From: Candidatus Nanohalobium sp.
GTDB taxonomy: Archaea > Nanohalarchaeota > Nanosalinia > Nanosalinales > Nanosalinaceae
NCBI GenBank assembly: GCA_042217555.1
Contig: JBDGSL010000075.1
Span: 1 to 19,237, forward strand
DNA length: 19,237 nt
Direction of reading: 5' to 3'
In this document: in pieces, positions 2 to 9,995 of the stretch
Numbering within the stretch: the stretch's first letter is position 1
How the letters are laid out: each line of letters opens with the position of its first letter
The notes under the pieces: generated by a model
What the model was told of the DNA's origin: nothing
Seen by the model: the letters and a program-made list of their open reading frames with translations, nothing else
Databases searched by the model: none
Position numbers and translations under genes: made by a program

Positions 2-154
2 AGCCCCGAGAGGGATTTGAACCCTCGACCTGCTCCTAGCTTGTGACTGTTTTTGCCGATCTTGGCAGGCATTCGATGAATGCCTGATTGCGTGTGGACC
101 GAGCGTAACCAGTCCTACAAGGGAGCTGCTCTAGCCAGGCTGAGCTATCGAGGC
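2..154 (-). tRNA. tRNA-Thr(UGU) with 78-nt intron at 37/38 (intron 38..115)
   Basis: Reverse complement gives acceptor GCCTCGA/TCGGGGC, D arm TAGCTCAGCCTGGCTAGAGC, anticodon stem GCTCC/GGAGC, loop CT-TGT-A^A, T arm GAGGG TTCAAAT CCCTC and discriminator U. Central BHB helix is CTTG/CAAG. Mature length 75 nt; no encoded CCA. Confidence 0.93.
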
Positions 155-5850: not shown

Positions 5851-6150
5851 TCAGCCGTGAAACTCCTGGAAGTCTCCTATCCTGTCTCCGTATTTCTTTG
5901 AAAGCGTCCTTCTGAATGCGACCTCTACTGTGGCGAACACGGTCAGGGCTGCTGCTATGTAACCCCATTGCTGGATTGAAAGAGGTTCTACTCCGAAGAA
6001 GCCGGAGATAGGTGTGTAGAGTATGATCAGGTGTGATGCTGAAGCTCCCAGGATCCCTGCTATCAACCAGGGGTTGTCTTTCAGTTTCAGGCCGTAGTCT
6101 CTTCTTATCACCTGGAACATCATGATCTCGCAGAATACCAGGGAGAAATG
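5851..6150 (-). pseudogene. C-terminal remnant of a P-type cation-transporting ATPase
   Basis: FSLVFCEIMMFQVIRR...NPWLIAGILG...ILYTPISGFFGVEPLSIQQW matches the last TM helices of P2-type ATPases. The frame closes at ~6154 and the rest of the protein is missing. Confidence 0.8.
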
Positions 6151-6157
6151 TAATCAG

Positions 6158-6408
6158 ATGGAGACAATATCGGTAAAAGCAAGATATTCCACTATCCAGA
6201 ACCTAAAGAAAAACGGAGAACTGGTACATCCTGAAGAAAATCTTCAATTAGTGGAAGATGATCCTGATGACGATAAACTGTTTGAAGCAGCTTTAGAAGC
6301 AGGTGCAGATTACGTGGTATCGGGTGATAAAGAACATGTCCAACCAATAGGATCATCCGAGAAATAAGCGTAATTACGCCAAGAGAACTGGTTGAAAAGA
6401 TGGAATAA
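6158..6408 (+). pseudogene. PIN-domain toxin remnant (PIN_3-like), N-terminally truncated and frameshifted
   Basis: DDPDDDKLFEAALEAGADYVVSGDKEH. The expected C-terminus ISVITPRELVEKME* continues in another frame (6361..6408). Confidence 0.78.
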
Positions 6409-6421
6409 ATACAGGTTGAAG

Positions 6422-6629
6422 TGGACCGGCCCAGATTTGAACTGGGGATCTCCACGTTTCTGACTTTCTACGGCAGTAACTGCCGTAAGCCATGCATGGC
6501 ATGGCTTCTGATGACGCATCCATCTCGACAGAGATGGCTGCTTGAAGCAGCAACTTCAAGTTGCTGCGGATCAAACTTTCAGAAGTTTGATATCAGCGTG
6601 GCGCTCTAACCTGGCTAAGCTACCGGTCC
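6422..6629 (-). tRNA. tRNA-Ile(GAU) with 133-nt intron at 37/38 (intron 6458..6590)
   Basis: Acceptor GGACCGG/CCGGTCC plus A73, anticodon stem CCACG/CGTGG, loop CT-GAT-A^A, T arm CCCAG TTCAAAT CTGGG. Central BHB helix is CTGA/TCAG. Mature length 75 nt. Confidence 0.93.
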
Positions 6630-7232: not shown

Positions 7233-7736
7233 ATGGAGACTGCAGTTCTCGGCGGCGGATGCTTCTGGTGCATAGAAGCCGCATACAAAGGTTTGAAGGA
7301 GGTAGAAAACGTAGTCAGCGGTTACGCAGGAGGCCGCAAAGAAAGCCCTGCCTACAGAGAAGTATGCAGCGGAGAAACCGGCCACGCAGAAGTGGTCAAA
7401 GTACAGTACAACGAAGAGGAAATCTCATACAGGGAGATCCTTGAGTTCTTATTCCGTATCCACAACCCAACCACAAAAGATAGGCAGGGGCCGGATACGG
7501 GAAGCCAGTACCGCTCAATAATACTGTATCAAAATTCCGAACAGAAAGAAACAGCAGAGAAATTCCTGGAGGAAAAACAGTCAGAGTACAAAGACCGAAT
7601 CGTCACCGAGTTGAAAGAACTCAACAACTTCTGGAAAGCAGAAGAAAAACACCAGGACTACTTCGAAAAGAACCCAGAGGATGCGTACTGCACAATGCAT
7701 GCTCAGCCGAAAGTAGAGAAAGCAAGGAAGTTTTAA
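7233..7736 (+). CDS. msrA: Peptide-methionine (S)-S-oxide reductase
   Basis: GGGCFWC, GYAGG, YREVCSGETGHAE, RQGPDTGSQYRS, AEEKHQDY. Confidence 0.97.
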   Translation: METAVLGGGCFWCIEAAYKGLKEVENVVSGYAGGRKESPAYREVCSGETGHAEVVKVQYNEEEISYREILEFLFRIHNPTTKDRQGPDTGSQYRSIILYQNSEQKETAEKFLEEKQSEYKDRIVTELKELNNFWKAEEKHQDYFEKNPEDAYCTMHAQPKVEKARKF

Positions 7737-7806
7737 CTAGCTGATAGGTTTTGTAGAACTTATTCTTTAGAATTTTTCCGAAAGCCGCCCTGTACAGCTT
7801 AAGCTT

Positions 7807-7928
7807 GATCAAACTTCCGCAAACTCCTTGAGTTTGCTGGTTGCAGAAGATCTCCGATCTTCGAATTCAGAAGTTTGGGCCCGAAGCAACTACGTTGCTT
7901 CTGAAACCAGCTTTCCAGAAGTGGAAAG
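7807..7928. repeat. Array of short perfect palindromes related to the tRNA intron modules
   Basis: Hairpins at 7819-7837, 7846-7862, 7883-7901 and 7911-7928. Longer-range stems 7810-7817/7870-7877 and 7836-7849/7898-7911. Confidence 0.85.
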
Positions 7929-8053
7929 ATGGGCCAGACGAAGTATTACTCCATAAAGCCAGTATTCCGCCCGGACTCTGGGTTGTAAGTCGGGTTTTAC
8001 AGTATAAATAATAGTAGAATAAAGGTAAAAATGTGAGGGAGACTGAGGAGGGA

Positions 8054-8173
8054 TTAAACCATAAATCCCATTTCCTCTTCCTCCTGATCGATGAGGTCTT
8101 TCTCTGCTTCCTTCTCCTCTATCAACTCTCTGATCTTCTCGTCCAGTTTCTCATCGAGGTCTTTGTCTGTCAT
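8054..8173 (-). CDS. 39-aa acidic peptide MTDKDLDEKLDEKIRELIEEKEAEKDLIDQEEEEMGFMV (absent from the ORF track)
   Basis: ATG at 8173 and TAA at 8054-8056; strong SD GGAGGTGA a few nt upstream; halophile-like composition. Confidence 0.7.
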   Translation of the reverse strand: MTDKDLDEKLDEKIRELIEEKEAEKDLIDQEEEEMGFMV

Positions 8174-8331
8174 TATTTCTCACCTCCTGTTTCTCAAGTT
8201 CTCTGACGATTTTCGCAATCCCTCTCATTCGGAAGTAGTGGGGTATGATGTCGCCATTTCTTTCTGAATTAATTGAGAATATTTAGAGATTCTCAAATCT
8301 GGTGTTGAGCTCTGTTCTGGGGATAGATGAC

Positions 8332-8348
8332 GGAAAAAACTTAAGTAT
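8332..8348 (+). promoter_or_regulatory. Putative BRE/TATA promoter for the GNAT pair
   Basis: GGAAAAAA followed by CTTAAGTA, about 23 nt before ATG 8370 (leaderless-type spacing). Confidence 0.4.
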
Positions 8349-8369
8349 AAGAGTTCGTTAATCTTGACT

Positions 8370-8891
8370 ATGTTCTTGGAAAAAGAAGATGTTGGTTTGA
8401 GACCTGTCGAAATATCAGATTATGAGTTTGTAAAATCTCTGTATGATATGGATGATATCAAGCAAAATTTTGGAGGGGTTCCAAGACCATTAACTCTGTC
8501 AAGGTTTGAAGAAAAAGTAGAAAAGTTTGAAAATTCATCACCAGAGGCTTATTTCATAATAGAATATGAATCTGAACCTGTTGGCCAGATTAAGCTACAG
8601 GATATAGATGACTTTCATAGAACAGCGAATCTGACCGGTTTAGCATTAAAACCTGATGTTAGAGGAGAGGGGGTAGGAAAAAATGCGATAGAGATGGTTC
8701 TTAACTACGGCTTGGATGAGCTCAATCTACATAAAATAAGAGCAGATATTATCGAAGGAAACGAACAAGGAAGATCGGTATTGGAAAAATGTAATTTCAA
8801 GGAAGAAGCAGTTTTAAAGCAGGAAATTTTTAGAAATGGAGATTATCTTGATGTTATCAGATTTAGAAAATTTCAAGGTGAGATAGAATGA
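8370..8891 (+). CDS. GNAT N-acetyltransferase, RimJ/RimL (SpeG-like) family
   Basis: LRPVE, acetyl-CoA motif VRGEGVGK, YGLDELNLHKI, N...LEKCNFKEEAVLK. Confidence 0.9.
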   Translation: MFLEKEDVGLRPVEISDYEFVKSLYDMDDIKQNFGGVPRPLTLSRFEEKVEKFENSSPEAYFIIEYESEPVGQIKLQDIDDFHRTANLTGLALKPDVRGEGVGKNAIEMVLNYGLDELNLHKIRADIIEGNEQGRSVLEKCNFKEEAVLKQEIFRNGDYLDVIRFRKFQGEIE

Positions 8892-9415
8892 ACAAAAATT
8901 TTATTGAGGGAGAAAGAGTCAGTCTTCGAGGAATAGAGGAAGAAGATGCCTCATTTATCAAGGAAAACATCAATAAATCTGATATTAGGCTTTTTGTCGA
9001 TCATAGAGGCCCTACAACTTCGAGAAAGGAAGAGGACTTTATTAGAGAAGTAAACAACGATGATTCAAGGTTCTCTTTCATCATTATGTATGAAGGCGAG
9101 AGAGTAGGATTTATCGAGTTGAAGACATTATTGACCGAGTCACGACTTGGAGAGATTGAGATATGGGTTGATCCCGAATATCAAGGAGAGGGAATCGGTA
9201 AGAAGTCATCTGAAATGATTGTAGATTTCGGCTTCAACCATCTTAATTTCCATAAAATAATAGCTAAACTCCACTCATCTAACAAATCATCAGAAAGTAT
9301 TTGGCAGGAATTAGATTTCGATAGAGAAGGAAGAATGAAGAAGGCTTTGATTTTAGATGGAGAATGGGTTGATGCTCTAACTTATGGTATGTTAAGAGAA
9401 GATTGGGTTGAATGA
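8888..9415 (+). CDS. GNAT N-acetyltransferase, RimJ/RimL family (second copy)
   Basis: IEGERVSLR, PEYQGEGIGK, FGFNHLNFHKI, YGMLREDW; ATGA overlap with the first GNAT. Confidence 0.92.
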   Translation: MNKNFIEGERVSLRGIEEEDASFIKENINKSDIRLFVDHRGPTTSRKEEDFIREVNNDDSRFSFIIMYEGERVGFIELKTLLTESRLGEIEIWVDPEYQGEGIGKKSSEMIVDFGFNHLNFHKIIAKLHSSNKSSESIWQELDFDREGRMKKALILDGEWVDALTYGMLREDWVE

Positions 9416-9444
9416 GATTTAGAGGTTGAGCAATTTAGCCTCTT

Positions 9445-9759
9445 CCTCAAATTTTATCCATATTTTCGGCCAGCAACTCTGCCGAGTTCTTCTCTATTAT
9501 ATCGCCTTCATCAAGATTGAGTTCTTGGAGAATAATGTCCAATATCTCTCGATGCCTCATCTATCTTGAAGTCGATGTGAGGAGCTATGGTACTCCATCG
9601 AGAGGCGAATCCTGAGTTTGAAGCAGAGTCTGTCCGACTTCTCCACCTGTCAAAGTACTCGTCCAGTACTTCCTTGTTATGTTCTGATAGTTCTTTGGTT
9701 TTAGCAAGACTTGAGTTGATGTGATATAGATTCGGGTATTGTTCTTTGTAGTTTGCCAT
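9445..9759 (-). pseudogene. Probable N-terminal remnant of a tyrosine integrase
   Basis: ELSEHNKEVLDEYF...IDFKIDEASR, continuing after a frameshift as ILDIILQELNLDEGDII..., resembles archaeal integrase N-domains. It starts about 105 bp from the tRNA 3' end and has no catalytic domain. Confidence 0.5.
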
Positions 9760-9865
9760 TTCTGGGCGTCACCGTGCCCGGAGCCCGGCGGAATTACTTT
9801 CTTATATCCCGGTTCGGACTTGAACAGAAACAGTCTTGGGCGAGGGATATGCTATATGGAGTAAA

Positions 9866-9995
9866 TGGGCCAGACGGGATTTGAACCCGCGACTACCAGG
9901 TATCTATGCTTTTTTGGCTCTGTAGTCCATGCATAGCATGGCTTGGAGGCGCAGGCGTAAGAGCCTGGTGCTCTGCCAGACTGAGCTACCGGCCC
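9866..9995 (-). tRNA. tRNA-Lys(CUU) with ~56-nt intron at 37/38 (intron ~9902..9957)
   Basis: Acceptor GGGCCGG/CTGGCCC, anticodon stem CCAGG/CCTGG, loop CT-CTT-A^A, T arm GCGGG TTCAAAT CCCGT. Central BHB helix CTCT/ATAG has one mismatch. Confidence 0.9.

Follow-up and report, generated by a model that had tools for sequence, protein, structure and literature searches.

Two families of short palindromic repeats, likely mobile, stacked at the 3' end of a nanohaloarchaeal tRNA-Lys(CUU) locus

The stretch of DNA analysed (19,237 nucleotides, termed the window) is contig C73 of a Candidatus Nanohalobium genome of 1.31 Mb that is 94% complete. Between msrA and an island bordering the tRNA-Lys(CUU) gene lies an array of hairpins, which consists of three short non-coding double-hairpin repeats, drawn from two families and stacked at the tRNA-Lys(CUU) 3' end (Table 1). 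Four perfect hairpins, with stems of 8, 7, 8 and 7 bp, had been named in a preliminary description and are present. The split that it reported of a hairpin unit from the tRNA-Ile intron (6569–6589) is likewise exact, the unit recurring as 10 nt, a 50-nt insert and 11 nt; an alternative stem pairs at 13 of 14 positions, as claimed, and results incidentally from the face-to-face arrangement of two related doublets. The array extends further left than first noted, to about 7778, where the decayed head of a Family II element begins, and the tRNA-Lys 3' end is present in it a second time, as a degenerate copy that had been overlooked. The tRNA-Ile(GAU) gene (6422–6629, minus strand; intron 6458–6590), whose GAT anticodon was read from the sequence, is wrongly labelled Leu by ARAGORN; its intronless counterpart, joining 6457 to 6591, is seen in runs X2 and X4. 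Just past the tRNA-Ile 3' end, at 5851–6367, are fragments of a cation-ATPase C terminus and of a PIN domain, probably the remains of another insertion.

Table 1 Features of the tRNA-Lys(CUU) 3' region and related features of the window
Feature	Position	Strand	Remarks
Intact Family II terminal hairpin	6570..6591	+	5' boundary of the tRNA-Ile(GAU) intron
msrA	7233..7736	+	Convergent neighbour; Pfam PMSR
Decayed Family II head (first hairpin and linker)	7778..7806	+	Same position and sequence type at orthologous trailers of G004, G033, G036 and G064
Linker end and left arm of Family II terminal hairpin	7807..7816	+	
Family I doublet 1, inside the Family II hairpin loop	7817..7866	+	Hairpins 7819–7837 and 7846–7862; spacer CTG-NNNN-CAG
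Loop and right arm of Family II terminal hairpin	7867..7877	+	Last two bases double as first two of the duplicated tRNA end
Degenerate duplicate of tRNA-Lys(CUU) 3' end	7876..7884	-	6 exact, 8/9 bases; read as target duplication of doublet 2
Family I doublet 2, opposite orientation	7882..7929	-	Hairpins 7883–7901 and 7911–7928
Displaced copy of tRNA-Lys 3' end, left border of island	7930..7940	-	11 bp (12 with preceding base), identical to 9866–9876
Island, 1.9 kb, two GNAT genes and small ORFs	7941..9865	.	Outside the array proper; 10-bp perfect inverted repeats 7946–7955 and 9855–9864
tRNA-Lys(CUU) gene, 56-nt intron	9866..9995	-	Target of all insertions at the site

Clusters of at least three perfect hairpins were absent from three order-5 Markov genomes of equal size; the real genome contains 70 clusters of at least two perfect hairpins and 10 of at least four. 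As DNA, positions 7785–7930 fold with z = −4.3 / −5.0. The split match was not reproduced in any of 2000 shuffles of the window, a comparison that the preliminary description had named as a check. The left 10-mer alone arose 175 times in 2000 shuffles and pairing forces 7 of the 11 right-hand bases, so that recurrence at other loci is the better evidence. Contigs from runs X1 and X2 (one study; X1 is possibly the source of the assembly) cross the array with no differences, which excludes an assembly artefact. The stable RNA fold (z = −3.3 and −3.0) and the location between convergent msrA and tRNA-Lys could be taken as signs of a host RNA element, whether a trailer or terminator structure of the tRNA or a separate small RNA. 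This explanation is highly improbable, however, in that the array returned no Rfam match at E ≤ 1, contains no terminator-like site, and at orthologous tRNA-Lys ends lacks counterparts of its outer hairpin (missing at 11 of 17) and of its doublets (missing at all 17). The array itself is probably neutral debris and not a functional RNA. RNase P and SRP RNA were considered as candidates and are both encoded on other contigs.

The hairpin of the tRNA-Ile intron is the right end of an element, termed Family II, which in the window copy spans 7778–7877 and is ordered as a first hairpin, a NTGATGAT linker, a terminal hairpin NN-AACTT-TCAG-AAGTT-N'N', and the target. The linker reads TGATGAT in intact copies and is decayed in the window copy. 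The unit is not special to the intron for which it had been named: seven intact copies occur in this genome, and 71 unsplit copies of the 14-mer were found in 28 of 70 genomes, as compared to 2 for a reversed-pattern control. The Family II hairpin was found in none of the 18 genomes of families f3 and f4. Among the 69 of 71 copies that were analysed in detail, the two outer pairs are Watson-Crick in 66 and 67, in seven combinations, against shuffle means of 34.5 and 28.8, whereas a third pair (13/69) is at chance level. The loop TCAG was kept in 52 of 57 copies when left free in the search, and each position of the TGATGAT linker is conserved in 54–66 of the 69. This one end of Family II is found directly against tRNAs, at either their 5' or their 3' ends, against intron starts, and against ribosome-binding sites. 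In 53 of the 69 copies, a T-loop motif is located no more than 260 nt away, on the strand of the element in 22, on the other strand in 30, and on both in one. Being located outside the tRNA gene, the array in the window is not a tRNA intron; sister copies are intronic.

Flanking duplications of the target accompany a subset of these copies. Among the 67 Family II copies with enough flank for the test, 14 score at least 9 (9–26 bp) as compared to 1.6% of 788 shuffled pairings, and a strong duplication is absent from the other 53; these counts and those given below for Family I overstate independence, because copies in related genomes are partly orthologous. Six of the 14 strong duplications include the terminal paired bases N'N', which in several cases are the last two bases of the tRNA. 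A third module, an imperfect hairpin with GCGTAACCAGT, was observed in tRNA introns and flanks (G000 C7:3966–3992, C31, C46, C48, C76, and C83; window 88–114); it is often joined to Family II heads and is also invaded by Family I doublets (L021, L212). At L267, a Family II end borders the 5' side of a tRNA gene in a nanohalarchaeotal MAG, and this gene apparently holds non-canonical introns. Duplicated tRNA 3' ends were also seen at G000:C27:61593–61866 (26 nt) and at C56:18922–18941, the latter tRNA-Thr(UGU)-like, with the corresponding gene at the start of the window contig.

Family I doublets are of the type CG-hairpin-CTG-spacer-CAG-AA..TT-CG, and the two in the window face opposite ways. 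A strict finder made 59 doublet calls at 40 loci in this genome, which is an undercount since the second doublet of the window was missed by it, and none in the three Markov genomes. Most copies lie outside ORFs of at least 90 aa (32 of 40 doublet loci and 75 of 98 single hairpins). The preliminary description had taken the insertion sites to be tRNA-associated, which fails as a general rule: 29 of the 40 doublets and 72 of the 98 hairpins are more than 200 nt from a tRNA. Eleven doublets lie within 200 nt of one, a zone that makes up 1.7% of the genome and 6.7% of its non-ORF DNA; tRNAs are thus favoured by Family I, yet are a minority of its sites. Other sites of Families I and II include ribosome-binding sites, gene ends, and DGR target ends. 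Stable GNA-triloop DNA hairpins were tried as a signature of the family and set aside, the difference being weak (17 of 51 triloops against 32 of 147 in other hairpins).

Flanking repeats of Family I were not in excess in this genome (5/59 against 5.7% in the control), whereas in relatives 5 of 31 doublets score at least 8, against 0.4% in the control. Two loci, L224 and L222, have the order seen in the window, namely a tRNA 3' end, a doublet, a second tRNA-end copy, and a Family II hairpin, with duplications of 13 and 6 bp, respectively, at tRNA-Gly ends. Because both show this layout exactly, the degenerate tRNA-Lys end in the window is read as the duplicate made by doublet 2, whose hairpin at 7883–7901 differs from that of L222 by one loop base.

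The filled form, a Family I doublet within a Family II hairpin, was found nine times in seven genomes; its sites are the 5' sides of tRNA-Lys(UUU) and tRNA-Phe, the 3' sides of tRNA-Phe and tRNA-Ser, a ribosome-binding site, and a position next to a protein gene. Four of 16 pairs in its stems are doubly changed and 92% of cells are paired, with the outer stem partly broken in three copies. A loose split pattern was matched at control level across the 70 genomes and was left out of the evidence. Several lake contigs match 7806–7878 and then continue into different flanks. Nested insertion had been proposed for the array. At L172, a different doublet occupies the identical position in the Family II hairpin and is accompanied by a clean duplication of 8 bp, and as this doublet entered independently, insertion at that base is repeatable; nesting as such is thereby supported. 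The further idea that the hairpin was split in place here is unnecessary, because a ready-made composite exists at about seven unrelated sites. Simple splitting in place also fails to explain the right arm, as the loop of the nearest empty allele is AGCTTG, not TCAG. Given this difference in the loop, conversion may have brought in the filled hairpin as a finished unit, instead of local splitting having produced it.

Comparison of the tRNA-Lys interval across 17 orthologous loci and lake contigs, as had been suggested for strains lacking the island, recovered alleles free of doublets and island. The outer hairpin lies directly at the tRNA in five of the 17 and at a displaced copy in one, and is absent from 11; Family I doublets are at none. 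The six occurrences support the earlier proposal that the array was the tRNA-Lys(CUU) 3' trailer. In G004, an unsplit outer hairpin with the TCAG loop stands at the tRNA-Lys end. G033 is identical to the window at 7799–7816 but carries AGCTTG in its loop, and this loop is also found in G003 and in contigs of X1, X2, and X4; an X4 contig matches 7774–7816. In lake contigs, 7816 is followed directly by 9866, with neither doublets nor island between them, the X1 and X2 joints having only 20 letters on their short side and possibly deriving from a relative.

The island has ends of its own, consisting of the 11-bp tRNA-end duplicate and the 10-bp inverted repeats (19/29 over a longer span). These ends occur without the array in G031 (L031, with another cargo of 0.7 kb) and in X2–X4 contigs; the island is an event separate from the array and, by its position, later. 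In the X2–X4 contigs, the left end of the island has other neighbours, and one contig has 479 other letters inside; the island appears as a cargo-swapping mini-island without an integrase. The order of events proposed from these alleles would begin with a Family II element landing against the tRNA 3' end. Its terminal hairpin would then receive a Family I doublet, or be replaced by a ready-made filled copy, and a second Family I doublet would enter between the hairpin and the tRNA end, duplicating 6–9 bases. Finally, the island would insert at the tRNA end with its own ends, displacing the array by 1.9 kb. The tRNA-Lys(CUU) locus records three or four successive insertions, and since it gives exact junctions, the insertion route is testable.

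Introns of at least 20 nt are present in 36 of the 38 ARAGORN tRNA calls of this genome, and 14 of the 36 hold a module of the repeat families as compared to 0.35 in random segments, a figure that leans upward because the motif set includes the third module, which was defined from the same genome. The tRNA-Lys(CUU) gene is intronless at 8 of the 17 orthologous loci. The elements may supply many of the tRNA introns of this organism, as creators or as invaders of existing ones. At G000:C1:15907–16071 and C12:32556–32692, two near-identical hairpin-rich stretches were noted, which may be duplicates of one intron-containing tRNA gene that escaped detection by ARAGORN.

Scanning 185,579 genomes for the exact pattern yielded 75 loci, with named carriers mostly in the Nanohaloarchaea. 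Most non-archaeal matches among the 75 lack pairing and head and were rejected as chance, as were six Family II motif matches in viral sequences, none of which has paired outer bases; the Family I doublet had no match in viral sequences. The full Family II element is also present in two MAGs labelled Ca. Hydrothermarchaeota (G074) and ‘Methanobacteriota’ (G075), respectively. Matches were found in 13 of 151 genomes around G074, five of which are or resemble nanohaloarchaeal genomes (matching coordinates). In the other eight, all 16 printed copies keep the outer pairs and 10 of the 16 have duplications that score at least 11. These duplications measure 41–57 bp at histidine-kinase ends (78 in one tandem case), 16–18 bp at the 3' ends of tRNAs, 11 bp at one tRNA 5' end, and 21 bp in the space between ribosomal-protein genes. 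In G074 and G075 (L313–L319), several histidine-kinase genes take their stop codon from the Family II element, after which comes a second copy of the gene end, 41–57 bp long; tandem repeats were seen at G074 C79 and C212. One and the same element end is shared by intron interiors, tRNA ends, ribosome-binding sites, and a distant archaeal lineage, and is accompanied by duplications and empty alleles, which bears on how archaeal tRNA introns arrive. For Asgard tRNA introns, no general arrival route is reported in the part of a 2026 preprint that treats them (10.64898/2026.10.13.758758), and the relevant section of a review calls the mechanism of the Thermoproteales introns unknown (PMC4090602).

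The data establish family membership, recurrence, covariation, duplications, and empty alleles; also put to the test were nesting at a fixed base, covariation that involves target bases, freedom of orientation, and the sharing of one element with a distant lineage. Since related copies are often flanked by two copies of the target sequence, the repeats are likely mini mobile elements, and that they move at all is very probable. The array is probably a pile of three likely non-autonomous mobile elements inserted at the DNA level, with the enzyme presumably acting in trans. A single strand in folded form would be joined to the target at staggered nicks, the likely guide being pairing or microhomology with the target over 2–8 bases; during repair, the interval between the nicks would be copied, yielding the duplication. 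Insertion at the DNA level is favoured by the free orientation, by conservation of loop, linker, and stem length across distant lineages, and by breakpoints in hairpin loops, and this nick-and-fill route has somewhat better than even prospects of being correct. The chances for and against targeting guided by pairing appear evenly balanced. Nicks in hairpin loops are suggested by several duplications that end in the T-loop, in either orientation, and by the entry of Family I into the Family II loop. More speculatively, an archaea-wide class of enzyme-less mini-transposons might be envisaged, in which two-hairpin single-stranded DNA, with its terminal stem completed by pairing to the first bases of the target, enters nicks in hairpin loops (tRNA T-loops, the loops of one another, and DGR target ends), duplicates 6–57 bp, and has brought and enlarged many nanohaloarchaeal tRNA introns; this generalization is tentative.

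Equal orientation is compatible with an RNA intermediate as well, in which excised tRNA-intron or read-through RNA would be reverse-transcribed (e.g., by a DGR RT) and inserted at nicks in a SINE-like manner. The fixed right end, variable left end, and 9–26-bp duplications would suit such a route, as would the frequency of modules in tRNA introns (14/36 against 0.35), the two DGR-type RTs of this genome, and the Family I doublets within about 40 nt of 4 of 8 DGR target-gene ends. Furthermore, the conserved TGATGA and CAGA/CTGA resemble box C and box D and could form a K-loop. In contrast, the RT family is present in 7 of 70 genomes (this one included; genomes incomplete) and the hairpin in 28 of 70, and the RT was not found in the element-rich G063, G007, and G006 (82–98% complete). 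DGR synthesis is adenine-mutagenic, with which perfect stems fit poorly; the C83 variant keeps its hairpin through a double change that alters the D-like box; and there is no orientation bias at tRNAs. Passage through RNA is therefore considered unlikely.

The histidine-kinase site L313 has two copies that differ at synonymous positions, and there an incoming copy fits better than fill-in. Minicircles carrying one flank copy could re-integrate at similar sites (tRNA arms, ribosome-binding sites, or paralogous gene ends) by Campbell-type crossover, using a host or viral tyrosine recombinase, and the synonymous differences at L313 favour this at the kinase sites. At the histidine-kinase ends of G074 and G075, moreover, the 41–57-bp copies can differ synonymously, units stand in tandem, and the first 7–8 bases follow the element, not the target; at three tRNA sites in G100 and G106, the first 8 bases are altered in an identical way, and tRNA ends are standard att sites according to the passage of PMC3293823 concerned. 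However, targets are very diverse, many duplicates match the local site exactly, and no member of the integrase family was detected in G063 or G006 (each 82% complete). As a general account, re-integration of circles is judged even less probable than passage through RNA.

Genes of the Y1, GIY-YIG, Cas1, RT, and integrase families were searched, and none tied to the repeats was found. The Y1 transposase occurs in 5 of 61 genomes. The sole Y1 gene here, of IS200/IS605 type with a doublet on one side, was rejected as a RAYT partner, scoring 135 against a cut-off of 55 for IS200 and 29.8 against 80 for RAYT. An Ssn-type nuclease was discounted as the two GIY-YIG hits lie in longer frames with no perfect hairpins within 500 nt, and a casposase or Cas1 as none was found in this genome and Cas1 in one of five element-bearing genomes. 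No autonomous version was found among 11 ORFs flanked on both sides (housekeeping genes) or around the G074 and G075 copies. Integrase was absent from the 25 scanned ORFs of the window and its family was found in 3 of 5 carrier genomes; in an overview of the integrase hits, no repeats tied to them were seen.

Several known systems share features with these repeats. As described in the parts of Nunvar et al. (2010; PMC2817692) that concern them, REP/BIME/REPIN repeats with RAYT are also short extragenic palindromes with inverted doublets, mosaic clusters of alternating orientation, and compensatory stem changes. The copy number here (40 doublet loci and 98 single hairpins, mostly outside ORFs) is below the >100 typical of REPs. 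Unlike REPs, these repeats have no GTAG-type head, their feet being CAGAA or NCGAA; their stems are perfect with freely varying interiors and no RAYT lies between them; and they are archaeal, favour tRNA introns and ends, and are flanked by long, variable duplications (6–57 bp). A hairpin with a conserved foot and a variable centre, made directional by conservation of one flank, is shared with dRS3/NTS/SRM repeats and SsnA, as far as these are characterized in the main text of Chenal et al. (2025; PMC11893778), in which archaea and tRNA each have no occurrences; no small GIY-YIG gene lies between the repeats here. Like MITEs in the corresponding part of PMC3184786, the repeats are small, non-coding, structured, and flanked by target duplications. 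In contrast to MITEs, Family II lacks terminal inverted repeats, its ends being unlike each other, the duplication length is not fixed, and no matching transposase was found. SINE-type retroposons have a fixed end, a variable other end, and variable-length duplications, as do the repeats, which in contrast have no poly(A) or other tail and are not tRNA-derived; RT was not found in most of the carrier genomes searched, which are incomplete. The repeats work like REP/BIME and dRS3/NTS and duplicate like MITEs and SINEs, while departing from the REP-RAYT, Ssn, and MITE systems in the defining features of each; they are likely non-autonomous palindromic mobile repeats. Near-identical units in different tRNA genes are known for the transposed tRNA introns of the Thermoproteales, in the portion of the review that covers the work of Fujishima 2010 on them (PMC4090602), and tRNA fragments duplicated at insertion borders for a Caldiarchaeum tRNA-Thr insertion, in the portion of PMC3293823 that reports it. 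Both traits recur here; as compared with those accounts, the present units lie inside and outside introns in both orientations, are 45–100 nt long, and carry no recombinase gene. The repeats are undescribed in the literature searched, with most subscription papers and the supplements of nanohaloarchaeal genome papers beyond its reach.

The DGR target-gene ends with a nearby Family I doublet are those at G000:C75:53233–53277, G000:C86:2809–2862, L150, and L144. Both DGR target-gene ends of this genome carry a doublet where a DGR homing hairpin is expected. The end motif resembles a tRNA T-arm, and the doublet there is either an insertion hot spot or a borrowed signal; as a required DGR homing hairpin it was rejected, being absent from 4 of 8 target ends. 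A scan of metagenomes for the DGR targets gave only distant matches. A DGR locus with avd, template, and RT lies at G000:C38:426–2142 (L131). At G000:C75:52121–53750 (L130), a target end runs into template-type downstream sequence without avd or template, and the RT start is apparently frameshifted, as in a collapsed DGR. An IS605-type element at G000:C11:15190–16400 (L034) comprises tnpA, a likely tnpB, and an assembly gap; a Family I doublet precedes its tnpA by about 60 nt.
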